The notes beneath the pieces are model-generated. The model saw only the letters and a program-made list of their open reading frames with translations. It was not told the origin of the DNA and ran no database searches. Of a stretch of DNA of 64,000 bases, positions 1-56,326 are shown piece by piece. The stretch comes from Escherichia phage AV111. The number at the start of each line of letters is the position of its first letter. The first letter of the stretch is position 1. The position numbers and the translations under genes were made by a program. The stretch lies in sequence record OR352941.1. One strand, written 5' to 3'.

Positions 1-292
1 ATTCTGAAGCACCAAATTCTGAATCATAGAACAAACAAATTGCATCTTTATATTTCTTCATATATGCTGCAACCATGGTCAGTCCAAACAACGTTTTAAA
101 GTGTTTAGAAGGAGCAGCAAAAATAGTCAAGCCTGATTGCAATCCTGCATTCAGAGCACCACCTAGTGCAATATTCAACATCGGAATACGAGTAGGGACT
201 TCATCACGATTATTAAACAGCTTAGACTTAGTCAAGTCTGCAGTCATTTTAGAAGTAGAAGCTTTAATCAGACGAGATTTTAAATCAGACAT
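1..292 (-). CDS. uvsX: UvsX recombinase (RecA-like), N-terminal part; gene continues past window start
   Basis: Reverse-complement translation from ATG at 290-292 reads MSDLKSRLIKASTSKMTADLTKSK...FYDSEFGASE, matching T4 UvsX N-terminus; absent from ORF track because truncated by window edge. Confidence 0.9.
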   Translation of the reverse strand, partial: MSDLKSRLIKASTSKMTADLTKSKLFNNRDEVPTRIPMLNIALGGALNAGLQSGLTIFAAPSKHFKTLFGLTMVAAYMKKYKDAICLFYDSEFGASE

Positions 293-390
293 TGTATTTT
301 TCCATAGGCATCATTATATTTTACTCATGTTTAAAAGATAAGATGATTATATACTAAGAGTTATACAGCATTTAAAACTTTAAATGGCTC

Positions 391-939
391 TTAACGAGCC
401 CATTTAATGATTTCTGTAATCAAATTATTACGTTCGCTTGCATTAAATCCTATAACTTTGTTAGAACCATCATGATTAAGTAATTGATACGTTTGGATTT
501 TGTTATGAATTGCAAACTCTTCAAAATGTGAAATGACTGTATTAAAACCGAATGAAGACAAAGTAATAAGGTCGTCTTCAAAACTTTCAGACATTTCGTT
601 ACGTGTTAAAATAATTGTGAACACATCATGGTTTTGGCAAAGACGAACATAATCCTGTTCATAAACGTCAAGAACCGAGTCCGCATCTTGTCGAATACGT
701 CCATAAACCCAGTTACTAATATATCCACGGTCTAACAGATAAATCTTAGTAGGGTCTAAATAATTCAACATCGTTTCGAAACAGCCAACTTCATTTCGAG
801 ACTTAACATCGAAACGTCCATCAACTGTTCGTTTAGGGAAATCAATCTTTACATATCTTTCACTAATTTCCATTATGTCATTAATGAAAGTTGTTTTACC
901 AGCATTATCTGGGCCATCTACTAAAATAATTTTAGCCAT
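391..939 (-). CDS. P-loop (Walker A GPDNAGKTT) nucleotide/nucleoside kinase-like protein, 182 aa
   Basis: ORF track; N-terminal MAKIILVDGPDNAGKTTF resembles dNMP/thymidylate-kinase-type P-loop; sits where T4 has beta-gt region genes. Confidence 0.6.
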   Translation of the reverse strand: MAKIILVDGPDNAGKTTFINDIMEISERYVKIDFPKRTVDGRFDVKSRNEVGCFETMLNYLDPTKIYLLDRGYISNWVYGRIRQDADSVLDVYEQDYVRLCQNHDVFTIILTRNEMSESFEDDLITLSSFGFNTVISHFEEFAIHNKIQTYQLLNHDGSNKVIGFNASERNNLITEIIKWAR

Positions 940-940
940 T

Positions 941-1840
941 TTATTCCTCGATTACGACATCTTCATATTTAGGTATATTATACGGCGAAGAAATTAAAGC
1001 GTTAAAGTAGATGAACTCACCAAGACCTGGATGGAATACTTCTTCAGGATTTTCGAAATATTGAATCTTCGGACGTCCTTTAAGAATTTGATAGTACTCA
1101 GTTTTAGTTGGATTAAAAATTCGAATCAGCGCTTCTTCAGGATACTTATTTCTGTCGAAACTATTATTTGGATCAGTTATATAAAGCGGTTGACCTAATT
1201 GAATTGCGCATTCAACCACTTGTTCAAAACGATAGCATGGGTCACTAATTCGAAATGGATGAAAAATACCATCTAGATGAATAGGAGCCAAATCACCTAC
1301 AAGACGCTGCATGACGGAAGGACGTATAACTTTCTGCGTTACGATAATCTTATTACCATCTGCACCTGCGTTAACCAGCACTTCTTTTTGACGTTCATTC
1401 AACACAGTAGTTTGAAGTGAACGATTAACAGACAACATGTCGGTTTTTAAGAATTCATCAATATAAAAACGTGGTTTATTAGGGTCTGCAGTGATATTGA
1501 AATTGAATTCTACATCAAAAGCGCCGTCATATCCAGTGATATCTGTGATTAGAAAATCGCAATCATAATAAGCAATTAATGAATCAACTACAAATTCATT
1601 TTCAGACCAGAAATATTTACGAGTGTTATACGCGTTATCTTTATACCATAATGGAACAAACTTAAATTCTGGAAAAAGACGTTCGCATTCTTTAATATCA
1701 GATGCATTACGTGGATATGTAATCACATCACCCGGATTAGCACGGTGCAAATGAAGTTGGAAGTTGCCATCCTTAAGGATAGCATACTGTCCAGTTTCAT
1801 AAGACCGCATACTCAAGATAGGTACGCGGAAAATAGCCAT
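941..1840 (-). CDS. hypothetical protein, 299 aa (occupies the T4 beta-gt position; function unknown, candidate transferase)
   Basis: ORF track; tightly packed between P-loop gene and 42-like gene (1-nt spacing/overlap); no recognisable motif by eye. Confidence 0.6.
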   Translation of the reverse strand: MAIFRVPILSMRSYETGQYAILKDGNFQLHLHRANPGDVITYPRNASDIKECERLFPEFKFVPLWYKDNAYNTRKYFWSENEFVVDSLIAYYDCDFLITDITGYDGAFDVEFNFNITADPNKPRFYIDEFLKTDMLSVNRSLQTTVLNERQKEVLVNAGADGNKIIVTQKVIRPSVMQRLVGDLAPIHLDGIFHPFRISDPCYRFEQVVECAIQLGQPLYITDPNNSFDRNKYPEEALIRIFNPTKTEYYQILKGRPKIQYFENPEEVFHPGLGEFIYFNALISSPYNIPKYEDVVIEE

Positions 1841-2556
1841 TAGTCAAGGAATCCTTTAACATAATCAAAATCACGTTCAAACACATGGGCACTTACCATG
1901 GTATGAGTATAATCACCAACTTCTACACCACATTCGTTAGCGATATAATGAAGTAATTTTCCTTGGAGATAAAAATCCAACTGCATAACAACAGCACAGT
2001 TCTGAGAACGCATATGACAGTGGGTATAAAGCTTACCATCACGAATATAATAAGTCACTGAGTCAGTACATGGATATTCAAGCGTTTCGTCTGAATCAAG
2101 CAAAGCCTGATCAGAACTTTCTAGAATTTGGAACACAACTCTTCGAGAGTTAGGCTTCTCTTTAAGTTCTTTTAGAAGAGCTGGTAATTGAGCCGCAATG
2201 CGAGGACCATAGAAAGTGTTGAAGTTCGCCGGCAAAACATCTGATTTTGGTTTAGAAATAAATTTAGCGACATTAGGATATGCCTTAAACGCTTCTTCTG
2301 CGTTGGTACCACCAGAAATCATAAACTTCCAGAAGTCTTCGGCATATTCATAAGAGATGCGGTTAATACGTGGGTCGGTCATTTTGAATGATGACGGAGT
2401 GTCAACAACTACTGTCATAGACCCAATTTCATTACAACGTCCAATACGAGAATCAGTTACGAATTCCGGGTTTTCTAAAATTTCACGATTGACTGCTTTA
2501 AATGCGGTTTGAAAATCTGCGGCTTTGATATATTTCATTGTGTTATGTTTTCCCAT
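1840..2556 (-). CDS. 42: thymidylate-synthase-family pyrimidine hydroxymethylase (gene 42 position, divergent dCMP hydroxymethylase homolog)
   Basis: Motifs PNSRRVVF, YPCTDSVTYYIRDGKL and HMRSQNCAVVMQLDF parallel the T4 gp42 PDSRRG / CTNTVQYLIRD / MRSNDVVFG blocks, but overall identity to T4 gp42 as I recall it is low. Confidence 0.7.
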   Translation of the reverse strand: MGKHNTMKYIKAADFQTAFKAVNREILENPEFVTDSRIGRCNEIGSMTVVVDTPSSFKMTDPRINRISYEYAEDFWKFMISGGTNAEEAFKAYPNVAKFISKPKSDVLPANFNTFYGPRIAAQLPALLKELKEKPNSRRVVFQILESSDQALLDSDETLEYPCTDSVTYYIRDGKLYTHCHMRSQNCAVVMQLDFYLQGKLLHYIANECGVEVGDYTHTMVSAHVFERDFDYVKGFLD

Positions 2557-2597
2557 GTTTACCTCAATACAATTATTATATACTCAATTCGTAAAGC

Positions 2598-2837
2598 TTA
2601 TTTGAATTTCTTGGCAGTGTTGATATAACGTAAAGCTTCAGCATCGATACTTCCAAGAACACTATGAAGAAATGCATCAGCGTAGTATTCCAATTGAACA
2701 GATTCTTTAATCACTTTAGCCGCTTTAGTTTCAAACAGGCCCATCAGGGCCTTTTTAAGAATTTGTTCATTAGTGTTCAGTTTCATAGTCAAAATCTCTT
2801 CATTAAGTTGGTGGTTAAAAGTTTTTCTAGAAATCAT
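2598..2837 (-). CDS. hypothetical protein, 79 aa
   Basis: ORF track; overlaps stop of upstream gene by 4 nt, operon-like packing. Confidence 0.45.
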   Translation of the reverse strand: MISRKTFNHQLNEEILTMKLNTNEQILKKALMGLFETKAAKVIKESVQLEYYADAFLHSVLGSIDAEALRYINTAKKFK

Positions 2838-3994
2838 TCCGGGTACCTCAAAGCGTCATCAGAGTTAGTTATATCAATAATAGATATAGAGTTTTCTGCT
2901 AACCCGTTTTTAGATAATTGACGTTTATAATATCTTTCACAATATGTACACGTCGTCCCGCAGATTTCATTAGCACAATCGAAATCTGGATGTCTGAACC
3001 ACCTTTTTTCTAAAAAGCCATCTAACAAAGAGGTTTCAATATTTACTGTATGTGAAAACTCAGTTTCGTTTTCAAGAGTGAAAATAGTCTCTAAAGGCTT
3101 CCACAGTTCTAACAAATTACCTTCAAACTTTTCAGAAGCGTATGCTTCAAGAACTTTCAAAATGTAGTCTGTGCTACCTGTACGTCCTGAAACTTTGAAT
3201 TGAGTGATACCAATATCATTATAAAGTTTCAAATCTTGAGGACGAACAAAACGAGTTCTCAACCAGTTAAATGGGTCTGTATCACGAGCTTTAATACAGT
3301 GCTGCATAGGATATCCGTTTAAGGATTTAGCATCATCAGCTGTAACATCAGTACTATGGAAAATATAGCAAGAGTCACGATAGCTACAATGTGTTGTATA
3401 CCCTTTACCAGCATTAGAACAGAACTCATTTACAAGAACTTCAAATATTATATTGTTCTTATTGCAAAACTCTGCTGCACGCTTCAGGAAAGAAACTGAA
3501 CGGTTCTTATGAATTCCACAGCAGACCTTTTTGATATTATATTGGTCATGCAAGTATTTGATTTGAGTTACAGCATCGACATGTAGAATTGTTGAAACTT
3601 CAATCTCAATGTCTTTATTGACTTCACGAACAATTTCCATAACAACAGGGTTAGCGATAGTAATACGCCATACGCCTATTGACCAAAGATACTGAACATA
3701 ATCCTGAATAGCTTTCTTCTTCCACTCAACTAGTTCTCTTTTTGAACCAGGATTTATCGTGTTGAGTGTATAGTTAAAGCAAATACCTAATTCGTTACAA
3801 CGTTTAACGTAATCTTCTAACATCTTTTTGTCAACGTCAGGAAGCCTAAAATCAGGTCTGGCTGCTACAAAAGCCATTTCTCTTGTAGAGCCGTATACTT
3901 CGTTTATCAAGCTATTAGGATAGGTTTTATTGAGCTCTACGATTTTATCAAGAAGAGCTAAATCAAAATTCGTTCCGATTTTAAAAGTATTCAT
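2834..3994 (-). CDS. cysteine-rich hypothetical protein, 386 aa (possible metal/Fe-S binding; modification-island gene)
   Basis: ORF track; C-terminal FDCANEICGTTCTYCERYY (Cx4Cx3Cx2C) plus other Cys clusters; no confident family assignment. Confidence 0.6.
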   Translation of the reverse strand: MNTFKIGTNFDLALLDKIVELNKTYPNSLINEVYGSTREMAFVAARPDFRLPDVDKKMLEDYVKRCNELGICFNYTLNTINPGSKRELVEWKKKAIQDYVQYLWSIGVWRITIANPVVMEIVREVNKDIEIEVSTILHVDAVTQIKYLHDQYNIKKVCCGIHKNRSVSFLKRAAEFCNKNNIIFEVLVNEFCSNAGKGYTTHCSYRDSCYIFHSTDVTADDAKSLNGYPMQHCIKARDTDPFNWLRTRFVRPQDLKLYNDIGITQFKVSGRTGSTDYILKVLEAYASEKFEGNLLELWKPLETIFTLENETEFSHTVNIETSLLDGFLEKRWFRHPDFDCANEICGTTCTYCERYYKRQLSKNGLAENSISIIDITNSDDALRYPE

Positions 3995-4056
3995 TTTTTT
4001 TGCATCTCGCGTTAATTGATGCGATGGTTTTTTTTTTGCAGGTCTTACTTAAATTA

Positions 4057-4458
4057 TTATAGATTCGGTTTATATGATTTAAATGTTTCGAATTCGCCTT
4101 TATTCATAAGAGCTTTGAATTCATCAGGACGCATAGCTTTGTCGTCGATAATCCAATCATATACTGGTTTATGTGTTAGCAAATTATGGTACTTCAAACC
4201 AATGTTTTCCAAGTTCTGAATAAGACTTGGGAGAATGTCAATTGCTATACGACCAGGACCTACTGACTTCATACCACGAGCAGTGTAAAGCGTTATGGTA
4301 TGCCCTGCATCATACAGGGCATTAATGGCAGACACCATTTCGACGTCTGGTTTGAAGTTCACGTAATCACGATTGTTATTCCATTCCGTGATGCAATCAT
4401 CGACATCAAAACAAAGATTAAGCATGTTTTCTACACAGTGCATTAGATTCGTTCCCAT
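4057..4458 (-). CDS. HAD-superfamily sugar-phosphate phosphatase (KdsC/GmhB-like), 133 aa
   Basis: N-terminal FDVDDCIT = HAD motif I (DxD); small size typical of HAD IIIA phosphatases; overlaps upstream gene end. Confidence 0.65.
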   Translation of the reverse strand: MGTNLMHCVENMLNLCFDVDDCITEWNNNRDYVNFKPDVEMVSAINALYDAGHTITLYTARGMKSVGPGRIAIDILPSLIQNLENIGLKYHNLLTHKPVYDWIIDDKAMRPDEFKALMNKGEFETFKSYKPNL

Positions 4459-6128
4459 TGATGAGTGATATCGCCACCGATTGGACGATAAGAAACACCA
4501 GTTTCTTTATCAGTTAGTACCCATTTACCAGGATTTTTTGTAATCAGAGTAGCCGTTACAGGTTCTGCTACGTCATAACTAATAGAGCCGTCTTGAAGTA
4601 CACGGCCCATGTTACGTAATTGCTTAGTCAGAAGTTCCATACCTTTATAATATGCTGCTACCGCTTTAAGTGGATTATTCTTGAAATAACCACCTAATGC
4701 AATCCAGATAATTGCTACAGCCAAATGATGATACTCGTTAAACGAACTCATCTTTCCATATTTGTAAACTAATGGATTGATGTTAATAGTCACATTACAA
4801 GTTGTTTCATCAATAGTAAACTGTCCCCAGGCCGGATTAGCATTGAATTCATCATAACCTGAAACAGCATAAAGCACTTTAGCTTCATCATACAATTTTG
4901 GCCCGTAAATCTTGGTTTCGCCAAAATATCCACGAGGGTCGATAAACTTGACTTCGCCGTTATCAGTAATCATAGTATTACTGAAGTTCGGGTCACCATG
5001 AATAACAGAGTACTGTCCCTGAGAACGGTTATGATAACGAATAAGGTGTTCTAAAGCTTGTTTCAGCATTGGCTTCAGACGTCCAATCTTAGTGTAGTTC
5101 ACATGTGTGATTTTACCAAATGAATCAATCAATGGTTGAATACTTTCACAACGATCAATAACTTTCGTATAGAATTCTTTAGTGAAATCACGACGAACAG
5201 TTTCAGGACTTACAAAATAAGTGTCTGTGCTGAATTTCAGTGCATCTAAAATTGCATCAACAATTTGTGGACGAGCAAGACTTGATTTGGATTTAATATA
5301 TTCAAATGCCGGCTTACCTTTAATGCGTTCCATTTCAAAGTTATTTTCATTAACAGAAACTAACTGAGGAACTGAATCTGATTTCACTTTAAGATACCAC
5401 GAAATCTCATCTTTCTGAAGAGCTCGACCCTGTTCGGTTAATGCGAATTTAGTTACAGTTTCTTCACCAATTTCAACTGCATTAAAACTACGATTAAGTT
5501 CACGAACTTCATGAGCTTTTTCAAGTTTAGGCATATCACCTAAATCAATTAGATTCATAAGCTCTGATTTATTGAATGCGCTGCCGTAAAGGAATTCTAC
5601 GAAATCACGTCCTTTGCAGTATTCATGAATTTCCTCATCGGTAGAACCCATATAGAATTCCCAGTCTTTGAACTGATAAATTCCTACAACATTACCACCT
5701 GTTGAACCTACGTTAGTGATATTTTCACCGTCGAAATTATATCGACATTCATCACCCTTAACATAGATTGCGTTAACATTCCAAGACCATGAACCAAAAT
5801 CAGGAATAATATCACACCAGTTAACAATTACGTTATGGCCGTCTAAATCTTTGTGTAATTTAGCAAGAGCATAAGCAGAACCATACGCTTCATCAACTGT
5901 ACGAATAGTCACATTGAACCCTTCTTGCTCACAATAAGCTCGAACAGTTTCAGCAAATTTTGAATGAACTACTACAATAATTTCATCTGCGCCAAGGTCA
6001 GAATAAATTGTATACAAATTGCTCAGAATAGTGTCTTGTTTATAGTTAACAAGCACCTTAGGAATATGATGCGTTATTGGATACAAACGAGTTGCCAGTC
6101 CAGCACCAAGAATAACAGCTTTTTTCAT
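4443..6128 (-). CDS. bifunctional sugar-1-phosphate nucleotidyltransferase (N-terminal) / sugar anomeric kinase (C-terminal APH/ChoK-like), 561 aa
   Basis: N-terminus MKKAVILGAGLATRLYPITHHIPKVLV = GxGxRLxPxT pyrophosphorylase signature; C-terminus VIHGDPNFSNTMITDNGEVKFIDPRGYFG = HGDxxxxN catalytic loop of APH/choline-kinase fold. Confidence 0.75.
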   Translation of the reverse strand: MKKAVILGAGLATRLYPITHHIPKVLVNYKQDTILSNLYTIYSDLGADEIIVVVHSKFAETVRAYCEQEGFNVTIRTVDEAYGSAYALAKLHKDLDGHNVIVNWCDIIPDFGSWSWNVNAIYVKGDECRYNFDGENITNVGSTGGNVVGIYQFKDWEFYMGSTDEEIHEYCKGRDFVEFLYGSAFNKSELMNLIDLGDMPKLEKAHEVRELNRSFNAVEIGEETVTKFALTEQGRALQKDEISWYLKVKSDSVPQLVSVNENNFEMERIKGKPAFEYIKSKSSLARPQIVDAILDALKFSTDTYFVSPETVRRDFTKEFYTKVIDRCESIQPLIDSFGKITHVNYTKIGRLKPMLKQALEHLIRYHNRSQGQYSVIHGDPNFSNTMITDNGEVKFIDPRGYFGETKIYGPKLYDEAKVLYAVSGYDEFNANPAWGQFTIDETTCNVTININPLVYKYGKMSSFNEYHHLAVAIIWIALGGYFKNNPLKAVAAYYKGMELLTKQLRNMGRVLQDGSISYDVAEPVTATLITKNPGKWVLTDKETGVSYRPIGGDITHQWERI

Positions 6129-6169
6129 GTTGAAGTCCTCATTGGTAAGTAGGAGTATTGTACACTATT

Positions 6170-6313
6170 CTAGTTAAAGCATTCATACTTTGCTTGTAGT
6201 CCAATCATAATCCATCCAATTACAAGTGTTGGAATCATTACCGGAGCCGTTAAGCTCCAGTAGATAGTCATGACAAGCATCAATAGTAAAAGTCCTATTG
6301 TTATTGCTTTCAT
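6170..6313 (-). CDS. small hydrophobic membrane protein, 47 aa (not in ORF track; imm-region small protein)
   Basis: Own translation MKAITIGLLLLMLVMTIYWSLTAPVMIPTLVIGWIMIGLQAKYECFN; ATG overlaps stop of SIS gene (ATGA). Confidence 0.4.
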   Translation of the reverse strand: MKAITIGLLLLMLVMTIYWSLTAPVMIPTLVIGWIMIGLQAKYECFN

Positions 6314-6945
6314 TGTTCGCCTCGTAACATGGCACCTAGTGCACCGCCTGGATGGAACTTAAGGAAATCATTAGAGGTAAATCCACGTTCAGACGAAAGG
6401 TTGATAGCAAACGTATCGATAAGCGCTAACAACAATGTAGTGGACATTGTCGGAGCTAAAGAGTTCTCGTCAACTTCTACCGCGATACCGGTACAGAACG
6501 TATAATCAAAAAGAGCTTCGTATTCTTGTGGAATGTCAGGGTTACAATGTAACAGAATCTGTTTAACCTGAGGACGAATCATACGAAGATGTTTAGCAAC
6601 ACCTATCATTTCTTCAGTCTTACCAGAACGACTGATGTGAACTAATACATCATTAGGTGCAATAAATCCTGCGTCACCATGAGAATAATGCCCAGTGTTC
6701 AAGTACATACTCGGGATACCGAGTGAAGCAAATGTCTCAGAAGCTTTAGTTGCGATATTAGCATTCTTACCAACACCTGTAATAATTACCCGGCTTTCAT
6801 AATTGCTAAGTCCGGGGCGTCGAAGAGTTTCTAGAATAGCATTATAACGAGCAGGGTTTTGACTAATTACTTTGGCCATAGCGGCCAAAGAAGAAGCTTG
6901 TTTTATGATTGCGTCAATAGCGATAGTAATAGGAGTAGTTTTCAT
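6310..6945 (-). CDS. SIS-domain sugar-phosphate isomerase (KdsD/KpsF-type arabinose-5-phosphate isomerase-like, no CBS domains), 211 aa
   Basis: RVIITGVGKNANIATKASETFASLGIPS...HGDAG resembles the KdsD GxGKSxxIxxKxAATxASTGTP...HGDLG core rather than the GmhA GNGGS motif. Confidence 0.7.
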   Translation of the reverse strand: MKTTPITIAIDAIIKQASSLAAMAKVISQNPARYNAILETLRRPGLSNYESRVIITGVGKNANIATKASETFASLGIPSMYLNTGHYSHGDAGFIAPNDVLVHISRSGKTEEMIGVAKHLRMIRPQVKQILLHCNPDIPQEYEALFDYTFCTGIAVEVDENSLAPTMSTTLLLALIDTFAINLSSERGFTSNDFLKFHPGGALGAMLRGEQ

Positions 6946-6985
6946 ATTTCTCTCATTTAATTAGTTTACCGTCCATGACATTATA

Positions 6986-9697
6986 TCAAAAATCGAACAT
7001 ATCGAACAGAGATGCTTTCTTCTCATAATCGAGTTTCGCTGCTGATGTGAATCCTTCAAGTGGTTTAATAAATGTCTTCTCAAGGAGAACAGTGTAGTCC
7101 ATCCAATGAAGTACATCGTCTTTAATTAAATCTGTGATTTCAGTACCAGAAGGCCATGCGATACATTTATCACCGAATGGGTTTCCTTCACGTAAAGGCA
7201 GAACATATACTTTTTCACCTTCTACAACTTGCGGCGCATCAATATTACCTTTGATAGCTCGGTTATATGTCAGAATTCCACGAATATGGAACGGGCATTT
7301 GGGGCCAGGGAATCCACCGACATCATATTTAGCAATGTTATTCGCAGAAGATACCGACGCGATGCTAATATAATTCAATTGACGGAATTCTTTTTCAAAC
7401 TCTTTAAAATATTCTTGTAATGATTCTTCACCTTCTTGAAGCATACGACGAATACATTCTTTAAGAGCTTTCTGTACTGCTTTAGGGGTCGAAGATTTCT
7501 GAGTCTCTAGACCCATGATTTTGAGTTTAGGCTCAGCGTAACGAGTGCCTTCCATATCCCACACGTTTAATGCATAACGTTTCTTACCAGTCCAGAATCC
7601 ACCAATACCTTTAGAACCGAGCGGAGGGCCAGCAATAGCTTCTCGGTCCATGAACATCAAATGTTGCTTATTATTCATGTATTCACACATTTCACGGAAA
7701 CCTCTATCAATAGCTGGTTCCATACGTTCACGTGCAAACTTATCTAAGAAGTCTACCCAATGGTTGGTATCACGGAATTTAGATTCACCAACCTTATCAA
7801 TAATTTTATCTGCAGATACGTAAATGGAGTCTGTATCACCATATAGAACGAAAGCTTCGCCTTCTGTACCACAAACTTCATTCAGATATTCATTAACTTT
7901 ACGTTCAATCCACTGTAAAGCCATTTGCCCAAATGTTGTGATTGCAGTTGCATTACGCAAATCGTAATAACGGAACCAAACGTTTCCAAGTGCACCATAA
8001 AGTGAGTTGATAAGCAATTTACGGTTAATCTGTGCAGTCATACCTGCAACTTCAGTACGTTGAGCTCTAAACAACATTTCATTAAGAGATTTAGCAGACA
8101 ACTTTTTAATCTTTTCTTTAATCTCATCACTGAAGTCGAAACGATAATCAACATCTAATGGTTCGTCAACAGAAAGATTAGGATTATGCAATGCCTCTTT
8201 AATTATTTCGCCATTACGTTGAGCTGCAAGCATGTAACCTTTATGTTCTTTACGTTGATTAAAGACCTTAGTGATTTCAGTTGGAACTACACCATCACGG
8301 TCTTTATAATACATCATGCCGTTAGGAGAGCAACTGTACACATCTGAAGGACGTTCAGCGATTGCGTTAATATAATCATGCAGTGGAGCTACTTTAAACG
8401 TTCCTGCTATTGTTTCAGGGCTAATATTCACTTGGCGAATAATACTTGGATACAGAGATGTAAGGTCGAAACTCATTACATATTTGTATCGATTTGGAAT
8501 AGGTTCCTTAACAAAAGCGCCAGGATAAGGTTGAACCGGGTGAGAACGACCTTGTGGAATCACCTTGTTCTGCTCTTTAAGGCTATTAAAAATAATAGCA
8601 TCCCATGTTTTAATTGGACTGAACACAGATTGAATCTGAATTTTAGCATAATAACCCATGTCCAAGCTCAAGTTAATGAACTGGCGTTTAGCATCAATTT
8701 GCAATACACGATATACGTCGATAATGTTATAAGAAATATATCGTTGGTGATTGCTTTCACGAAGCTTAGAAATAGGGCCGTCATATTTCAGTTTACCAAC
8801 GTTCAATTCAAATTCTGAAATGTAATCCAGAGAATACGACGGTTGGTTCGTGAAAGAGAACTTTTTGTAAAGGTCAATGTAATCAAGAACAGAGATACCG
8901 AACAATGTAATGATTTCACGAGAACCATACATGTTTTCGATAACTTTAACACGAGTTTTACGATGTGGTGATAAACGTTTCGCAGTAGATTCGCCAAAAA
9001 TATTCTTGATTCGGTTATACACATATGGAATATCAAATGACTCAACGTTCCATCCAGTCAAAATGACAGGAGTTTTCTGTTGCCAGAAGTTGAGATATTC
9101 CATCAACAATTCTTTTTCGTTATCGAACGGCATATAAATGATTTTATCGATAATTTCGGATGGAACTTCATCACCGCCTTGTTCTTGAAGCTTAGCAGCG
9201 ATTTCAATAGACCATTCTTCTACATTACCATATGGAGAATTCAATAGATCAAATACGTAGAACCTGTCGTCAATTGAGTCATAATGGGTGATAGCATCAA
9301 TCGGATGTTTTGCTTGTGACGGCTCAGGGAACCCATCCGGAGATGTTACTTCGATGTCGAAGTTAGCCACACGAATTTTTGTATGGTCGTATTTGATTTC
9401 ATAGTTATAAGTGTCAGACAAATACGCCAATTTGAAATCGTCCATGCCAAGTGCTTCAAGTCCGATATCTTCCATGCGTTTAATCCATTGAGACGCATCG
9501 CGCATATTAGCGAACAACTTACGAGTACACGGCTTACCGTAGATATCGAAATATTTCGTAGCCTGACTTTCTGGACAATGAGCAAACAGTGATGGTTTAT
9601 ATTCTACTTCACGAGTACGTTCACGGCCATTAGAATCGATGTAACGTTCAAAAATTGAATCACCAATCTGTTCAACCGTTAAGTAAAATTCTTTCAT
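6986..9697 (-). CDS. 43: DNA polymerase gp43 (family B, with 3'-5' exonuclease)
   Basis: 903 aa; N-terminus MKEFYLTVEQIGDSIFERYIDSNGRERTREVEY and motifs DIEVT, YGDTDS match RB69/T4 gp43. Confidence 0.97.
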   Translation of the reverse strand: MKEFYLTVEQIGDSIFERYIDSNGRERTREVEYKPSLFAHCPESQATKYFDIYGKPCTRKLFANMRDASQWIKRMEDIGLEALGMDDFKLAYLSDTYNYEIKYDHTKIRVANFDIEVTSPDGFPEPSQAKHPIDAITHYDSIDDRFYVFDLLNSPYGNVEEWSIEIAAKLQEQGGDEVPSEIIDKIIYMPFDNEKELLMEYLNFWQQKTPVILTGWNVESFDIPYVYNRIKNIFGESTAKRLSPHRKTRVKVIENMYGSREIITLFGISVLDYIDLYKKFSFTNQPSYSLDYISEFELNVGKLKYDGPISKLRESNHQRYISYNIIDVYRVLQIDAKRQFINLSLDMGYYAKIQIQSVFSPIKTWDAIIFNSLKEQNKVIPQGRSHPVQPYPGAFVKEPIPNRYKYVMSFDLTSLYPSIIRQVNISPETIAGTFKVAPLHDYINAIAERPSDVYSCSPNGMMYYKDRDGVVPTEITKVFNQRKEHKGYMLAAQRNGEIIKEALHNPNLSVDEPLDVDYRFDFSDEIKEKIKKLSAKSLNEMLFRAQRTEVAGMTAQINRKLLINSLYGALGNVWFRYYDLRNATAITTFGQMALQWIERKVNEYLNEVCGTEGEAFVLYGDTDSIYVSADKIIDKVGESKFRDTNHWVDFLDKFARERMEPAIDRGFREMCEYMNNKQHLMFMDREAIAGPPLGSKGIGGFWTGKKRYALNVWDMEGTRYAEPKLKIMGLETQKSSTPKAVQKALKECIRRMLQEGEESLQEYFKEFEKEFRQLNYISIASVSSANNIAKYDVGGFPGPKCPFHIRGILTYNRAIKGNIDAPQVVEGEKVYVLPLREGNPFGDKCIAWPSGTEITDLIKDDVLHWMDYTVLLEKTFIKPLEGFTSAAKLDYEKKASLFDMFDF

Positions 9698-12439: not shown

Positions 12440-12711
12440 TTAGGTTTCCTATTAGCATAATAATTTGTCCAAGACCGGATAGCACCTTGGTATGATTCAT
12501 CATTAAAACCATGCTGAATTGCATGTTTTCTAAATGTAATATAACTTGGTTTTCCTAAAGCAATCCACAATTCCTTTAATTTTTGTTCATGAAATATCCA
12601 TGTACCTCTAGCTTTAGATTTTCTGAATTTATCCTTAAATTCTTTGGTTGCATTTCTTTTCGAAGCTGCGATAGAGGCCTTTGCTCTATTTTCAGGTTTA
12701 GACCAATACAA
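12436..12711 (-). CDS. possible displaced C-terminal DNA-binding segment of the adjacent homing endonuclease (NUMOD3-like WSKPENRAKASIAASKRN plus HTH-like tail), in a different frame
   Basis: 91-aa ORF overlapping the last ~45 codons of 12576..13334 in another frame; AT-rich homopolymer runs near 12712-12740. Confidence 0.4.
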   Translation of the reverse strand: MYWSKPENRAKASIAASKRNATKEFKDKFRKSKARGTWIFHEQKLKELWIALGKPSYITFRKHAIQHGFNDESYQGAIRSWTNYYANRKPK

Positions 12712-13334
12712 TGTTTTAGATATTTTATTTTATCTTTAACATTAGGAGAATTCATTATATCTTTAAATTTTAAAGCAAAATCTCTATCGCTAAACATTTT
12801 TTTAGAACGAATAGAAACTTTCTCTCTTCGTTCTTTGGTCCAATATGTTTTTTGAAATTCTCTAATTGCGTTTAAATGATTCTCCGACAATTTGCAATTT
12901 TTTCTAACACCGACGTAATCTTCATTTATTTCGTTTTTAGAAAGTTTTACTATTTTGCCTGTTTTTAAATTTTTATACGGTGCATATCCTTTAGCTGATA
13001 TTCTAGACTTCTCGTTAGCATAAGCCTTATTAAAATATTTTTCATTTGAAACGGCTTTAACATTGAGTTGGAATAGTCTTTCTATTCTTCTAGGGTCTAA
13101 TGTGGTTTCGCCTAAAATTTTTACAGAATATTCGCCTTGGTCTATTAATCTGTTATATAAAGGAGAATACGAGGAATTAACACTACCGGTATATATTTTA
13201 CCGGTAGAATCTTCAATAATATCCTTTCCATTAAAATGACACGAAACTTTAGAACCTATATAATAACACGGGTATTCATTTTTAATCTCACGATTATAAA
13301 AGGTTATAAGATATATTAAATTCATAATTATCAA
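12576..13334 (-). CDS. GIY-YIG homing endonuclease-like protein (Seg-like), possibly frameshifted near its 3' end
   Basis: N-terminus NLIYLITFYNREIKNEYPCYYIGSK (GIY...YIG spacing) and NUMOD3-like YWTKERREKVSIRSKK; inserted between 45 and rpbA-like gene. Confidence 0.7.
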   Translation of the reverse strand: MIIMNLIYLITFYNREIKNEYPCYYIGSKVSCHFNGKDIIEDSTGKIYTGSVNSSYSPLYNRLIDQGEYSVKILGETTLDPRRIERLFQLNVKAVSNEKYFNKAYANEKSRISAKGYAPYKNLKTGKIVKLSKNEINEDYVGVRKNCKLSENHLNAIREFQKTYWTKERREKVSIRSKKMFSDRDFALKFKDIMNSPNVKDKIKYLKHCIGLNLKIEQRPLSQLRKEMQPKNLRINSENLKLEVHGYFMNKN

Positions 13335-22165: not shown

Positions 22166-22636
22166 TTAATCATGTTTCCACACCCCATCGGTATTTGACC
22201 AAAGTCGCTGATTATCTGATCCTCGCCACAGCTTTTTAGTCGGAAGATTTTTCTCATACTTCCCATCAATAATAACATCAACATATTTAAGCATTTCTAG
22301 TTGTTTAATATCTTCAAACTTATATCCTGTCCACAACCAAATGCTTTTATTGGGATAAAGATTTTTTACTGTTTGAACAATGCAATGAATAACATCTCGA
22401 TTATCAGGATAGAGAGGGTCTCCTCCGGTTATAGTCAATCCTTCTATATAATCGTTATTCAAACATTCAATTAATTGTTCTAGTGTTTCACCAGTGAATG
22501 GAATACCATTTCTAGCATTCCATGTTGATTTATTATAGCACCCTTCACATTTATGCAAACAACCTGTAACGAAAAGAACGACCCTGCATCCAGGGCCATT
22601 CACAAAATCGCAAGGATAAAATCTATCATAATTCAT
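22166..22636 (-). CDS. nrdG: anaerobic ribonucleotide reductase activating protein (radical SAM)
   Basis: 156 aa; CDFVNGPGCRVVLFVTGCLHKCEGCYN. Confidence 0.92.
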   Translation of the reverse strand: MNYDRFYPCDFVNGPGCRVVLFVTGCLHKCEGCYNKSTWNARNGIPFTGETLEQLIECLNNDYIEGLTITGGDPLYPDNRDVIHCIVQTVKNLYPNKSIWLWTGYKFEDIKQLEMLKYVDVIIDGKYEKNLPTKKLWRGSDNQRLWSNTDGVWKHD

Positions 22637-24450
22637 TGGTGTTTAACCCTATGCATGATTTCTTTATTTTTGCCGAGATTAAATCCGCGTTCGTTCGGGT
22701 TTCCCAAATAACCGCATGTTCTTCTTATGGTGTTCATCTTTTTAGGATCAGTTTCTCCGCAAACTGAACAAACAAATCCGTTTTCAGTAGGAGTCATTTC
22801 ATGGGTACTTCCACATGTAAAACATTTATCTACTGGCATATTAACACCAAAATAATCTAAATGTTGTGCAGCATAATCCCACACGGCCTCAAGTCCTTTT
22901 AAGTTATTTTTCATATCAGGAAGTTCAACATAAGAAATGTGACCACCTGTCGCAATGAAATGATATGGCGCTTCACGAGAAATCTTTTCAAACGGAGTAA
23001 TATTTTCTTCTACTGAAACGTGGAAACTGTTAGTGTACCAGCCTTTATCGGTAACATCTTTTACACTTCCATATTTTTCTGTATCGAGTTTACAGAAGCG
23101 ATAACAAAGGTTTTCAGCAGGAGTAGAATACAAACTAAAAGCAAAACCAGTTCTTTCAGTCCACTGCTTAAGATGAGCATTCATTTTAGTTAAAATTTCT
23201 TGCCCAATATCACGGCCGACAAGAATATTCAATTCGTGAATACCAATGTATCCTAAAGACACTGAACTTCTACCGTTTTTAAATAACTCAATTATGTCGT
23301 CATCAGGTTTAAGACGAACCCCGAATGCACCTTCTTGGTAAAGAATAGGAGCTACAGTTGCTTTAACTCCTTTTAAGGAACTAATTCTACACATCAAAGC
23401 TTCAAAACACAGGTCCATTCGTTCGTTAAATAGCTCAACAAATTTCTGTTCATTGAACTGTGTTCCAATATAAGAATCTAACGCAATACGAGGAAGATTC
23501 AGTGTTACAACACCAAGATTATTACGTCCATCAAGAATTTCATTACCAGTCGAATCTTTCCATACGCTCAAGAAACTACGGCAACCCATTGGAGAAACTG
23601 GAACTGAAGAACCGGTAATAGCTTTATTATTCTTAACCGAAATAATGTCAGGATACATTCTTTTGCTTGCACATTCTAACGCAAGTTGTTTAATATCATA
23701 GTTTGGATCATCTTTATAAAGATTAACACCTTCTTCAACAAACATAACAAGTTTAGGAAAAATAGGAGTTATTCCATCACGACCAAGACCTTTAATGCGG
23801 TTTTTAAGAATTGCCTTCTGAATCATTCGTTCAGTCCAATCGGTTCCCGTACCAAATGTAATTGTTACAAAAGGAGTTTGTCCGTTTGAACTAAAGAGAG
23901 TGTTTACTTCATATTCATAAGCTTGGAATGCATCGTATACGTCTTTTTCTGTTTTAGATTGAGCATAATTCAACGCGTCAGCGATTTGCCATTTTTCTGC
24001 ATCTTCAACATGTTTAGCGTATGTACGTTTAACATAAGGAGAAAGAACTTTATCGACATTCGCAAAAGTCGTTCCGCCGTATTGGTGTGAAGCAACTTGT
24101 GCAGTAATTTGTGCCATAATTGCAGTAGCAACACCAATCGATTTAGGCGTTTCAATTTGAGCATTGCCTAATTTAAATCCGTTCTCAAGCATCCCTTTTA
24201 AATCTACTAAACAACAATTAGTAAAAGGCAATGATATACTGTAATCTAAATCATGAAAATGAATTAACCCGGCATTATGAGCATTTACAATATGGCTTGG
24301 AAGAATACTGCAAGCGATATGTTTAGAAACAATACCGGCCATTAAATCTCTTTTTGTTGGAAAGACACGAGAATCTTTGTTGGCGTTTTCGGTATTTAAT
24401 TCTTTATCTTTATTTGAAATAAAATTTAAAACATCTTTCTCTAAAGACAT
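22633..24450 (-). CDS. nrdD: anaerobic ribonucleotide reductase large subunit (glycyl radical enzyme), uninterrupted (no intron)
   Basis: 605 aa continuous ORF; C-terminal CFTCGSTHE...CSVCG zinc site and RRTCGYLG glycyl-radical motif. Confidence 0.95.
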   Translation of the reverse strand: MSLEKDVLNFISNKDKELNTENANKDSRVFPTKRDLMAGIVSKHIACSILPSHIVNAHNAGLIHFHDLDYSISLPFTNCCLVDLKGMLENGFKLGNAQIETPKSIGVATAIMAQITAQVASHQYGGTTFANVDKVLSPYVKRTYAKHVEDAEKWQIADALNYAQSKTEKDVYDAFQAYEYEVNTLFSSNGQTPFVTITFGTGTDWTERMIQKAILKNRIKGLGRDGITPIFPKLVMFVEEGVNLYKDDPNYDIKQLALECASKRMYPDIISVKNNKAITGSSVPVSPMGCRSFLSVWKDSTGNEILDGRNNLGVVTLNLPRIALDSYIGTQFNEQKFVELFNERMDLCFEALMCRISSLKGVKATVAPILYQEGAFGVRLKPDDDIIELFKNGRSSVSLGYIGIHELNILVGRDIGQEILTKMNAHLKQWTERTGFAFSLYSTPAENLCYRFCKLDTEKYGSVKDVTDKGWYTNSFHVSVEENITPFEKISREAPYHFIATGGHISYVELPDMKNNLKGLEAVWDYAAQHLDYFGVNMPVDKCFTCGSTHEMTPTENGFVCSVCGETDPKKMNTIRRTCGYLGNPNERGFNLGKNKEIMHRVKHQ

Positions 24451-25262
24451 AATTCTAATTTATCCTTTTGAAATTCTTCGTCTAAATATGGGTTCCAACC
24501 CATTTTAAACCTTTTGATGAAATTATCAATTCTAAATTTCGGTAAGTTTAAATCCGCAAAAATAGATGATTTACTTTTAAAATCTGGACCTAAATAATCA
24601 TATAAAATTTCTGCGTATTTTAACCATAATATATAAGTACCAGATTTAATTGCTCTCGGAGTTTTCCAAGGTTTTACACCATACATCGGATTTCCACTTC
24701 CTTTATGCCTGATAGAAGATGAAATTCCAATTTTAATTTTAGCTTCCTCTGTATGCGAAAATCCATGATGTGGATTTTCTTTCCAGTATTTTTTAGAAGC
24801 TTCTGATATTTTCTTTCTGGCTAAATTAGTATGATGCTTTCCATAAAATCCATGATTTTTACCTTTATTACGATTTCTTTTAATCATGGTTATTGATTGC
24901 TTTTTTCTAGTTTCTTTAGAAGGAGAAACACCATACGTTGTAAATTGACCATTAGCATATGCTAAATTAAAATACTCTTTATTCCATATATCTTTTTCTA
25001 TATTCTTTTGAAATTCAGCTTCAATGCTAGTTATTTGCTCATCTCCGACTAATTGAAAATATAATATTTCAACTTTCGGCGTTTCTTTCAACAGGGCTTT
25101 TTGAAATTCGGAAGATGACGAAGACGAATAATAAAATTTACCATTTTTATCAATAATATTCGTTCCGTCAAAAGTGCAATTAGTTTTACTTCCAATGTAA
25201 TAATATGGCGGGGTTTTAGCATTAATTCTATTAATAAATGATAGTTTATATACTACATTCAT
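24441..25262 (-). CDS. GIY-YIG homing endonuclease-like protein (Seg-like), free-standing between 49 and nrdD
   Basis: N-terminus VVYKLSFINRINAKTPPYYYIGSK; NUMOD3-like ISEASKKYWKENPHHGFSHTEEAKIKIG; overlaps nrdD start by 10 nt and 49 stop by 4 nt. Confidence 0.75.
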   Translation of the reverse strand: MNVVYKLSFINRINAKTPPYYYIGSKTNCTFDGTNIIDKNGKFYYSSSSSSEFQKALLKETPKVEILYFQLVGDEQITSIEAEFQKNIEKDIWNKEYFNLAYANGQFTTYGVSPSKETRKKQSITMIKRNRNKGKNHGFYGKHHTNLARKKISEASKKYWKENPHHGFSHTEEAKIKIGISSSIRHKGSGNPMYGVKPWKTPRAIKSGTYILWLKYAEILYDYLGPDFKSKSSIFADLNLPKFRIDNFIKRFKMGWNPYLDEEFQKDKLELCL

Positions 25263-55591: not shown

Positions 55592-56326
55592 TTACCTTAA
55601 GATTTTTTCAATTTTAGAATAAAGCTCTTCTAAAGAGCCGTCGTTTGTAATAACTAAATCGCCTTCTTCAATAGGCAACCCAGCTTCTGTAATATGTTTA
55701 TCAGTGGATTCCGTACCAGAGCGAACCACATGAATAACTGTAGCACCCATCGCTCTAGCGGTTTCCATTTCATGGACTTGGCGTGTATCGGTCACAACGT
55801 AGTAATCGAAATCACTTCCAATATAATCCATATAGTTTAATGCAAAAAGCTTAACCCAATACATACGGTCAAATAAATTAACGACAACATCCGTACCGAG
55901 GGCTTGCATAAGACGGCGGATCGACCACGTGTCGTTGATATTATTTATAGCTTCACGCAGGGCTTCGTACGGTTTAATATCTAGATATGAGTATCCACCT
56001 TCTAAGGATGATAATACTTTAACATTATTAATTGGTAAATATTGACTTTGTAAATAAATTAGCGCTTCTTCCATTAATTCAATAACATCCAACTTATTGA
56101 TATTTAATGGTGTTTCACGGTCATATCCGACACCTTCAAAGTATTCGTATTTCAACTCCGTGAATACATCAGGGTTTTCAGCATGTTTACGCCCCCAGGC
56201 TATTGCTAGAGCGTCTTTAATCGGATATGCCAATTGATATTTTACGGATTTAAAGTTTGAATTGATGTAATCAGCAGTAGTGTCTTTACCACTACGTTTG
56301 ATGCCGCTTAAAAAGATTAGCTCCAT
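55592..56326 (-). CDS. 1: deoxynucleoside monophosphate kinase gp1
   Basis: 244 aa; LSGIKRSGKDTTADY P-loop; matches T4 gp1. Confidence 0.92.
   Translation of the reverse strand: MELIFLSGIKRSGKDTTADYINSNFKSVKYQLAYPIKDALAIAWGRKHAENPDVFTELKYEYFEGVGYDRETPLNINKLDVIELMEEALIYLQSQYLPINNVKVLSSLEGGYSYLDIKPYEALREAINNINDTWSIRRLMQALGTDVVVNLFDRMYWVKLFALNYMDYIGSDFDYYVVTDTRQVHEMETARAMGATVIHVVRSGTESTDKHITEAGLPIEEGDLVITNDGSLEELYSKIEKILR

Follow-up and report, generated by a model that had tools for sequence, protein, structure and literature searches.

A probable dCMP 5-hydroxylase with a thymidylate synthase fold in the arabinosyl-5-hydroxycytosine gene cluster of Escherichia phage AV111

In the 64,000-nucleotide stretch of the Escherichia phage AV111 genome that we analyzed (sequence record OR352941.1; here, the window), there is one open reading frame (ORF) of the thymidylate synthase (TS) family. 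It runs exactly from ATG to TAA at the position given in Table 1 and encodes 238 amino acids. The ribosome-binding site, GAGG, lies 5 nucleotides 5' of the ATG. The leader is tentatively read as a MotA box and −10 element of a middle promoter, on the basis of the T4 middle-promoter consensus. A scan of positions 1 to 7200 for sigma-70 promoters and terminators returned sites no more frequent than in shuffled sequence. The stop codon of the TS homolog overlaps the start codon of the next gene (TAATG), through which the two genes are translationally coupled.

Table 1. Genes and sequence features in and around the uvsX-43 interval of AV111, with the basis of each assignment
Feature	Coordinates	Strand	Basis
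Thymidylate-kinase-like nucleotide kinase (RB69p045), pathway role not established	391..939	-	98% to RB69p045; PHROG 761 "thymidylate kinase," E 3e-45
Putative first DNA arabinosyltransferase	941..1840	-	98% to both RB69 fragments, ORF046c and ORF047c
Probable dCMP 5-hydroxylase/5-hydroxy-dCMP synthase (AfhB; RB69 gp48 ortholog), TS fold	1840..2556	-	ORF, Pfam, identity, structure match, residues
Key residues of the TS homolog: Cys163, Glu160, Arg138/139, Arg183, Asn186, Asp194			
5' leader: GAGG ribosome-binding site and T4 middle-promoter-like aaGCTTTA - 11 nt - TATAAT	2557..2600	-	Sequence read
79-aa ORF, unknown function (RB69p049), in the slot of the chorismate mutase of related genera	2598..2837	-	94% to RB69p049
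Member of the peptidase U32 family (RB69p050); hypothetically an Fe-S hydroxylase that depends on prephenate	2834..3994	-	Pfam Peptidase_U32, E 7e-11; weak UbiU match
HAD-type sugar phosphatase (AfhF/RB69p051 equivalent)	4057..4458	-	98% to RB69p051; TIGR01689 capsule biosynthesis phosphatase, E 2e-13; function, PMC13326640
Bifunctional arabinose-phosphate kinase/UDP-arabinose pyrophosphorylase (AfhE)	4443..6128	-	99% to RB69p052 and RB69p053; NTP_transferase and kinase-like Pfam; function, PMC13326640
Arabinose-5-phosphate isomerase (KpsF/GutQ family; RB69p055)	6310..6945	-	TIGR00393, E 9e-32; 98% to RB69p055
gp1-type dNMP kinase	55592..56326	-	Pfam DNMK, E 9e-97

AV111 is a Mosigvirus, with 97 to 100% identity to RB69 over the region. 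Between uvsX and gene 43, where T4 carries segA, beta-gt, 42, imm, and imm.1, AV111 has genes for a kinase, an arabinosyltransferase, the TS homolog, the 79-aa ORF, a U32 protein, a HAD phosphatase, a kinase/pyrophosphorylase, and an arabinose-5-phosphate isomerase. A complete arabinosyl-5-hydroxycytosine cluster replaces the beta-gt/42/imm genes of T4, and no homologs of T4-type gp42, alpha-gt, or beta-gt were detectable in the 64-kb window by tblastn (the glucosyltransferase matches were not significant). The suggestion in the preliminary description that the uvsX-43 module had been swapped horizontally is borne out insofar as the whole interval differs from that of T4. Recent horizontal acquisition, however, finds no support in composition: the GC content is 0.365 in the module, 0.368 in the adjacent replication genes, and 0.369 in the window, and therefore the difference from T4 is taken to be old. 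The gene order of the cluster is the same in JK45, RB69, KLB31, Virsaitis27, WG01, and Konradin.

The TS homolog is thus linked in AV111 to genes for UDP-arabinose synthesis, a DNA glycosyltransferase, and a dNMP kinase. Two genes that are split in RB69 (ORF046c/ORF047c and RB69p052/RB69p053) are single ORFs in AV111. The product of the first of these has no Pfam or NCBIfam match, and its function as the first DNA arabinosyltransferase comes from its ortholog (Table 1 of PMC13326640). The HAD phosphatase gene likely starts at the ATG at 4443, which overlaps the upstream stop codon and would give a protein of 128 aa. We infer that the distant dNMP kinase gene is orthologous to that of RB69 gp159, a gp1-type kinase that phosphorylates 5-hydroxy-dCMP to the diphosphate (PMC13326640). 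The idea of a chorismate mutase encoded by the 79-aa ORF gained no support: the ORF has no Pfam match even at an E value of 10, belongs to PHROG 8601 and not to the mutase PHROG 10027, and shares 17 to 20% identity with mutases.

The TS homolog matches Pfam Thymidylat_synt (PF00303; E 2.3e-15, 56.9 bits against a cut-off of 24.3). Its PHROG and Pfam family names are both "thymidylate synthase," which would suit an enzyme acting on dUMP, either a TS or a dUMP hydroxymethylase of the SPO1 gp29 type. It falls, however, far under the cut-off of every NCBIfam TS equivalog (best score, 68 bits against 174.55; others, 42 to 50 bits against 108 to 405). Moreover, the uracil-selecting Asn of ThyA (Asn177 in Escherichia coli), which would also be expected in a dUMP hydroxymethylase, is not found; the position holds Asp194 in AV111 and Asp in 120 of 120 homologs. 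The substitutions N177D in ThyA and N229D in the L. casei enzyme shift preference to dCMP (references 46 and 60 of PMC13326640), and the crystal structures of a close relative (see below) contain dCMP. The hm-dUMP product that the preliminary description had kept in play is ruled out by Asp194, and the published product of the orthologs is 5-hydroxy-dCMP (PMC13326640); we assign activity on dUMP a negligible probability.

The preliminary description had also remarked that a strongly divergent protein stands at the gene 42 position among T4-like neighbors. In a BLASTP comparison with T4 gp42, the TS homolog shows 54 identities over 218 residues (25%; E 3e-13), which falls short of similarity at the level of orthologs, whereas the identity between AV111 and T4 is 62% for gp43, 79% for RegA, 74% for gp62, 78% for gp44, 77% for gp45, 83% for gp46, and 76% for gp47. 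With neighbors at 62 to 83%, the contrast is therefore real. One explanation offered for it, a hydroxymethylase that evolved faster than the replication core, does not hold: in a family alignment, the distances of the protein from T4 gp42 (24% identity) and from E. coli ThyA (20%) are about equal, and, among the matches listed, tblastn identities to it are either at least 60% or at most 32%, with none between. Nor does RB69 have the T4-like gp42 that had been assumed, as the product of RB69 ORF048c, which occupies that position, shares 99% identity with the AV111 TS homolog. The proposed alignment check thus confirmed divergence for T4 gp42, but its threshold, by which an identity of at least 60% to T4 or RB69 gp42 was to overturn the claim, was ill-posed because of this 99% identity of the RB69 counterpart.

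A rival reading, which is the common database annotation and was the default of the preliminary description, takes the AV111 protein for a highly diverged gp42 ortholog in which synthesis of 5-hydroxymethyl-dCMP with methylene-tetrahydrofolate has been retained. The AV111 protein and T4 gp42 do have much in common: their genes occupy the same place between uvsX and gene 43, their products are C5-modified forms of dCMP that replace dCMP in phage DNA, and both have the TS fold, the catalytic Cys, the Asp at position 177 that confers dCMP specificity, and an acidic residue at position 143 (ThyA numbering). The equivalents of T4 gp42 Cys148 and Asp179 are Cys163 and Asp194 in AV111; they are common to both clades and do not discriminate between them. 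Of the three core blocks that had been described as shared with T4 gp42, all are present in AV111 (PNSRR at 135, CTDSVTYYIRD at 163, and MRSQN at 182, for PxSRR, C-T-x-x-V-x-Y-x-IRD, and MRSxN), but the last is not that of T4. The sequence is MRSND in the hydroxymethylases of T4, CGG4-1, and 44RR2.8t, QRSCD in ThyA, and MRSQN in AV111 and a Rhizobium phage homolog.

The difference lies at position 169 of ThyA, where the folate-dependent members of the family, including ThyA and the T4-type enzymes, keep Asp and AV111 has Asn186. The correspondences are Asn186 for D169N, Asp194 for N177D, and Glu160 for L143E, and these positions, together with those of Cys163 and Arg183, are kept in 120 of 120 homologs (at least 53% identity). 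D169N is diagnostic, and nine diverse homologs carrying it all made 5hodC (PMC13326640). Trp80 of ThyA, kept in T4 gp42, is Ala in AV111 as judged from the alignment only. In comparison with E. coli ThyA, the fold, the phosphate- and nucleophile-binding framework (Cys146, Arg166, and Arg126-127), and His207 are common, whereas AV111 carries N177D, L143E, D169N, W80A, and G173V and lacks the C-terminal ~40 residues of ThyA that close over the folate. Asn186 alone suffices for reannotating the orthologs, most of which carry a wrong label in databases.

The AV111 protein is identical to RB69 gp48 (ORF048c) at 236 of 238 positions (99.2%), differing at N85D and V107A, and to AfhB of phage HY126 (PDB 9iqc/9ir2) at 233 of 238 positions (97.9%; E 8e-161). 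These two and five substitutions are conservative, and none falls at a diagnostic residue. Length, fold, diagnostic residues, and neighborhood are the same as in RB69 gp48 and HY126 AfhB (9IQC, 9IR2, and 9IQU), so that the three are practically the same protein. An AlphaFold model built from a 63-sequence alignment (pLDDT, 87; a single-sequence model with a pLDDT of 37 was unusable) superposes on 9iqc and 9iqu with TM scores of 0.94 to 0.97 in Foldseek. The former entry is titled "Monooxygenase dependent on riboflavin with dCMP and FAD," and the latter is titled "phage HY126 dCMP hydroxylase-AfhB with substrate dCMP." The best non-self match was MilA, the CMP 5-hydroxymethylase of mildiomycin biosynthesis (5JNH, 5B6D, and 5B6E; Foldseek E ~1e-17; TMq, 0.83 to 0.85; 23% identity). 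MilA shares the specificity for cytosine nucleotides but differs in its ribonucleotide substrate, its folate-dependent hydroxymethylation, its bacterial origin, and a length greater by ~80 residues. T4 gp42 structures (presumably 1B5D, 1B5E, and 1B49) were not among the best 50 Foldseek matches listed.

The chemistry is known from these relatives. RB69 gp48 and its dNMP kinase together yield 5hodC in E. coli DNA, 18O2 labels the gp48 product, and the gp48 preparation is yellow and releases FMN, the flavin being loosely bound (PMC13326640). Because RB69 gp48 converts dCMP to 5-hydroxy-dCMP with O2 and flavin, the AV111 protein is not a hydroxymethylase. Several GenBank records do label the ortholog a dCMP hydroxymethylase, and RB69 DNA was first reported to contain ara-hmC (PMC6024577). 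However, the many labels of dCMP hydroxymethylase or TS are based on homology and not on experiments. The ara-hmC assignment was later called erroneous in an independent statement, by which Mosigvirus cytosines are derived from 5-hydroxy-dC (PMC13390438), and the 98%-identical crystal structure was deposited as a flavin monooxygenase. Distances, D169N, and the published chemistry together rule out a fast-evolving gp42 ortholog, and folate-dependent hydroxymethylation by the AV111 protein is very improbable. The suspicion that its product might not be hm-dCMP was well founded.

We conclude that the TS homolog of AV111 is very probably a dCMP 5-hydroxylase (5-hydroxy-dCMP synthase), in which the TS scaffold has been switched from a folate one-carbon donor to loosely bound reduced flavin and O2. 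For the AV111 protein itself, we obtained identity, fold, diagnostic residues, and gene context; what the product is, that its oxygen derives from O2, and that flavin is bound were shown by others on 98 to 99% identical proteins, and the flavin mechanism is drawn from the PDB titles and from what a citing paper relates. T4 gp42 uses methylene-tetrahydrofolate and water to add CH2OH, whereas the AV111-type enzyme would use flavin and O2 to add OH; the former is linked to glucosyltransferases, and the latter is linked to arabinose genes. A third reading, a dCMP methyltransferase making 5-methyl-dCMP as in fully 5mC phages, would be compatible with the TS fold and with Asp at position 177. It has scarcely any probability, given that position 143 holds Glu and not a bulky hydrophobic residue, that the gene is tightly linked to those for enzymes that activate arabinose and for glycosyltransferases, whose acceptor must be a hydroxyl group, and that the published product of the ortholog is 5hodC (PMC13326640).

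In the proposed 5-hydroxylase reaction, Cys163 would form an adduct at C6 of dCMP, a step common to all enzymes of the TS family, while Asp194 would read N3 and N4 of the cytosine. The activated C5 would then attack the oxygen of a flavin hydroperoxide, and elimination of the Cys would release 5-hydroxy-dCMP. This product would be phosphorylated by the gp1-type dNMP kinase and then by the host NDP kinase, built into DNA by the phage polymerase instead of dCTP, and, after replication, O-arabinosylated with UDP-arabinofuranose supplied by the products of the neighboring genes. The resulting arabinosyl-5-hydroxycytosine DNA, with arabinose on every cytosine, would be resistant to restriction and CRISPR nucleases.

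The function of 5-hydroxy-dCMP synthase has already been published for RB69, HY126, DLP3, and relatives (2025 to 2026), and AV111 therefore contributes one more allele from a Mosigvirus and no new biology. The primary source on the structure and biochemistry of the enzyme is He et al. (Nat Chem Biol 2026). The re-tooling of a folate-dependent scaffold into a flavin monooxygenase is a striking case. The hydroxylase is the committed step toward arabinosyl-5-hydroxycytosine DNA. Many restriction enzymes are blocked by such DNA, and sensitivity to defense systems is altered, which matters for phage therapy and for enzymatic DNA handling.

The U32 gene lies two genes upstream of the hydroxylase gene. 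The known U32 enzymes act in a prephenate-dependent manner: RlhA and TrhP introduce 5-hydroxy-C and 5-hydroxy-U into RNA, and ubiquinone precursors are hydroxylated by UbiU/V. Prephenate is the product of chorismate mutase, and a gene for this enzyme, verified with Pfam, is located exactly between those for the U32 protein and the TS homolog in 48 related phage genomes. It is possible, although we think it somewhat likelier to be wrong than right, that the U32 protein is an O2-independent, prephenate-dependent cytosine-C5 hydroxylase for anaerobic replication, for example in the gut, and that the flavin/O2 enzyme is the aerobic half of a dual system. Precedents for such pairs of O2-dependent and prephenate-dependent enzymes are TrhO/TrhP and UbiIHF/UbiUV. 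If true, the U32 gene (with the chorismate mutase in relatives) would answer how a pathway with an O2-requiring step supports growth without oxygen, which is directly testable.

The distribution of the genes bears on this hypothesis. Phage records with the U32 gene number 221, and the hosts listed for them, Enterobacterales and Shewanella, are facultative anaerobes. The hydroxylase gene occurs in 65 Acinetobacter phage records; the U32 gene is missing from the cluster of the one Acinetobacter phage examined, and Acinetobacter is absent among the listed host genera. A gene for NrdD, the anaerobic ribonucleotide reductase, is likewise found in the AV111 window. Dhakavirus WG01, which infects E. 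coli without a U32 gene, is a caveat to the dual system and rules out a strict rule by which every phage of a facultatively anaerobic host would carry U32. A further caveat is that the AV111 ORF in the mutase slot is not recognizably a mutase. A 2026 NAR paper gives the U32 gene only as a "sugar or heterocycle reductase." Our literature search found no connection between U32 and 5-hydroxycytosine within its scope; He et al. 2026 and Mahler et al. 2025 lay outside it and may already address the idea.

The AV111 U32 protein shares the Pfam U32 core with RlhA, TrhP, UbiU, and UbiV, but identities are 15 to 23%. The essential Glu (E161) and the first Cys (C169) of RlhA align, whereas the second Cys (C176) is Gly and the fourth is His213. 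Two of the four canonical [4Fe-4S] Cys residues thus align in AV111 (C192 and C209), and an additional Cys203 is nearby. It would act on a deoxycytidine nucleotide or on DNA, unlike the RNA that RlhA and TrhP hydroxylate at pyrimidine C5. Like RlhA, the AV111 protein has a Cys cluster in its C-terminal region, with the motif CX4CX3CX2C.

The thymidylate synthase (TS) homologue of the window represents an already known feature, for which the best explanation is a dCMP 5-hydroxylase (AfhB of phage HY126, gp48 of RB69). The window protein is identical at 236 of 238 positions to ORF048c of RB69, a phage that was to serve as a gp42 reference in the preliminary description and that lacks a T4-like gp42, and at 233 of 238 (E = 8e-161) to the protein of structures 9IQC, 9IR2, and 9IQU. 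When modelled from 63 homologues (pLDDT 87), the window protein superposes on these entries at TM scores of 0.94 to 0.97, its best other fold matches being the CMP hydroxymethylase MilA and ordinary TSs. The PDB titles “Monooxygenase dependent on riboflavin with dCMP and FAD” and “phage HY126 dCMP hydroxylase-AfhB with substrate dCMP” belong to entries released on 2025-07-16.

The DNA of RB69 and Acinetobacter phage DLP3 contains mono- and poly-arabinosylated 5-hydroxycytosine (Lee et al., NAR 2026, PMC13326640), and the earlier “arabinosyl-hmC” assignment for RB69 is called erroneous in a second paper (PMC13390438). RB69 gp48 is yellow and releases FMN, its product is labelled by 18O2, and 5-hydroxy-dC enters E. 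coli DNA when gp48 and the RB69 dNMP kinase are provided (PMC13326640). The same paper cites He et al. (Nat Chem Biol 2026), whose crystal structure of the HY126 protein contains flavin and who obtained O2-dependent hydroxylation by reconstitution. The early suspicion that the product might not be hm-dCMP was correct; the near-identical gp48 makes 5-hydroxy-dC (PMC13326640). For proteins nearly identical to that of the window, the literature documents the product, the origin of its oxygen from O2, and the binding of flavin (PMC13326640); the individual chemical steps are proposed here by analogy. As in TS chemistry, Cys163 would add to C6 of dCMP, the C5 carbanion equivalent would attack an oxygen of a flavin-hydroperoxide, and elimination would give 5-hydroxy-dCMP, which would then be phosphorylated, incorporated by the phage polymerase, and arabinosylated after replication.

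The preliminary description had noted a divergence from T4 gp42 far beyond that of neighboring proteins. This contrast is real and large: the TS homologue shares 25% identity with T4 gp42, compared with 62% for gp43, 79% for RegA, 74% for gp62, 78% for gp44, 77% for gp45, 83% for gp46, and 76% for gp47. One explanation offered was a fast-evolving hydroxymethylase. However, the protein is no hydroxymethylase at all, given its deep separate branch, the D169N change (ThyA numbering), and the published 5-hydroxy-dC product. In the family alignment, identities are 24% between the window protein and T4 gp42, 20% between the window protein and E. coli ThyA, and 22% between T4 gp42 and ThyA; judged from these sequences, the three are deep branches of one superfamily. 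When 50,697 phage records were searched by tblastn, 342 matched with at least 60% identity (Mosigvirus, Dhakavirus, and Klebsiella, Serratia, Proteus, and Acinetobacter phages) and 134 with less than 60%; among the matches sampled, the next best after 60% lay at 30 to 32% (Rhizobium and Agrobacterium phages), and T4-type gp42 at about 26%. The family-alignment distances and these two discrete identity groups led us to reject an accelerated gp42 orthologue. Neither a second TS-family open reading frame (ORF) nor anything resembling T4 alpha-gt or beta-gt was found in the 64-kb window. The protein matches Pfam Thymidylat_synt above the gathering score (E = 2.3e-15) and lies far below all NCBIfam TS equivalog cut-offs. 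In phage records, orthologues are variously labelled thymidylate synthase, dCMP hydroxymethylase, deoxycytidylate 5-hydroxymethyltransferase, or hypothetical protein, and JK45, a near-identical Mosigvirus-like genome, has a record filed under Tequatrovirus.

The active site points to the 5-hydroxylase as well. In a ThyA numbering that agrees with the twelve active-site residues listed in PMC13326640, the window protein retains Cys163 (C146), Arg138/139 (R126/127), Arg183 (R166), and His224 (H207), whereas Glu160 (L143E), Asn186 (D169N), and Asp194 (N177D) are changed; the same residues occur in 120 of the 120 closest homologues (53 to 100% identity) from a search of 5.8 billion proteins. Asn at position 169 is the signature proposed by Lee et al. 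and validated on nine diverse homologues (PMC13326640). Asp194 argues for dCMP as substrate and against the hm-dUMP alternative; the enzyme does not act on dUMP. The motifs thought to be shared with T4 are present as PNSRR (residue 135), CTDSVTYYIRD (163), and MRSQN (182), but the last is not a common block: in a ten-sequence alignment, all members of the hydroxylase clade have MRSQN, even a Rhizobium phage protein of 33% identity, whereas T4, Salmonella phage CGG4-1, and Aeromonas phage 44RR2.8t have MRSND and ThyA has QRSCD, so that the final residue discriminates.

The second explanation, a swap of the uvsX-43 module, holds insofar as the module differs: in this interval T4 carries segA, beta-gt, 42, imm, and imm.1, where the window has arabinose genes corresponding to the RB69 gp45-gp55 cluster and to HY126 AfhE/AfhF functions (see table). 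The module and its surroundings do not differ in GC content, so the difference from T4 reflects an old module replacement rather than a recent import. From the neighbor of uvsX through gp55, window ORFs are 94 to 100% identical to RB69 proteins (97 to 100% for all except the 79-aa p049). The RB69 splits 046/047 and 052/053 are sequencing errors (PMC13326640), and the unbroken window counterparts of ORF046c/047c and ORF052c/053c agree with this account. The hydroxylase ATG is preceded at a distance of 5 nt by a GAGG ribosome-binding site, and at the 3' end the stop overlaps the next start (TAATG). TAATG or ATGA coupling recurs at several junctions of the arabinose cluster, as at 4441..4458 (-), where the upstream stop and a second HAD phosphatase ATG at 4443 overlap as TAATG; translation from this ATG gives the 128 aa annotated for RB69 and JK45. 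Immediately before the hydroxylase gene, aaGCTTTA-N11-TATAAT at 2557..2600 (-) resembles the consensus of T4 MotA-dependent middle promoters and may be one, which would be consistent with pre-replicative expression.

Coordinates of the hydroxylase gene, its module, and related loci
Feature	Location	Strand	Remarks
Thymidylate-kinase-like kinase	391..939	-	
Putative arabinosyltransferase	941..1840	-	299 aa, single intact ORF
TS homologue (hydroxylase)	1840..2556	-	238 aa, single ORF, ATG to TAA
79-aa ORF	2598..2837	-	beyond hydroxylase gene
U32-family protein	2834..3994	-	Pfam U32 core
HAD phosphatase	longest ORF start 4458	-	next in module order: kinase/nucleotidyltransferase
Bifunctional kinase/nucleotidyltransferase	4443..6128	-	561 aa, single intact ORF
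Arabinose-5-phosphate isomerase	6310..6945	-	end of interval
252-aa ORF	12576..13334	-	TTG start; between gp45 and rpbA
nrdD, anaerobic ribonucleotide reductase	22633..24450	-	
Homing-endonuclease ORF	24441..25262	-	NUMOD3/PHROG 7504; overlaps nrdD start
gp1-type dNMP kinase	55592..56326	-	
U32 gene, Klebsiella phage KLB31	4983-6158		
Chorismate mutase, KLB31 (Kanagawavirus)	6155-6394		U32-TS slot
U32 gene, Erwinia phage Virsaitis27	4992-6161		
Chorismate mutase, Virsaitis27 (Winklervirus)	6158-6502		U32-TS slot

One possible function of the U32 protein is a C5 hydroxylation of cytosine that needs prephenate and no O2, which would provide an anaerobic route to 5-hydroxycytosine. RlhA forms 5-hydroxycytidine in 23S rRNA and requires Fe-S clusters and prephenate, TrhP is the prephenate-dependent partner of O2-dependent TrhO, and prephenate is the oxygen donor for UbiU/V. 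Aligned with these proteins at 15 to 23% identity, the U32 protein has the essential Glu in common with them, together with the first and third of the four Cys residues in the cluster motif, and its C-terminal CX4CX3CX2C cluster recalls the C-terminal cysteines that RlhA requires. In KLB31 and Virsaitis27, as in many related genera, the slot between the U32 and TS genes holds a Pfam-verified type II chorismate mutase (CM_2; 38.5 and 44.6 bits, cut-off 27). By tblastn, the mutase occurs in 48 phage records; an annotated TS homologue lies under it in 35 of the 40 matches listed, and only a hypothetical protein in five (Yersinia phages). The Mosigvirus slot ORF (79 aa, PHROG 8601) has no detectable similarity to chorismate mutase. 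The U32 gene is present in 221 phage records, the listed hosts being Enterobacterales or Shewanella; neither Dhakavirus WG01 nor the cluster of the Acinetobacter phage studied has it. In 15 of 15 IMG/VR U32 loci, an HMRSQN motif follows 0.6 to 1.3 kb downstream. NrdD, also encoded in the window, equips the phage to make dNTPs anaerobically. The alignment, the slot mutase, the host distribution, and NrdD support the anaerobic, prephenate-dependent function proposed for the U32 protein.

The window belongs to a Mosigvirus: a megablast with its first 20 kb gave Mosigvirus genomes of about 98% identity, among them APCEc01, JK45, and AlbertHofmann/Bas46, with about 5% of the query uncovered in most of them. 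RB69 lacks a counterpart of the 252-aa ORF between gp45 and rpbA, and this ORF, a match to PHROG 7504 “homing endonuclease” (E = 9e-17), probably accounts for the uncovered portion.
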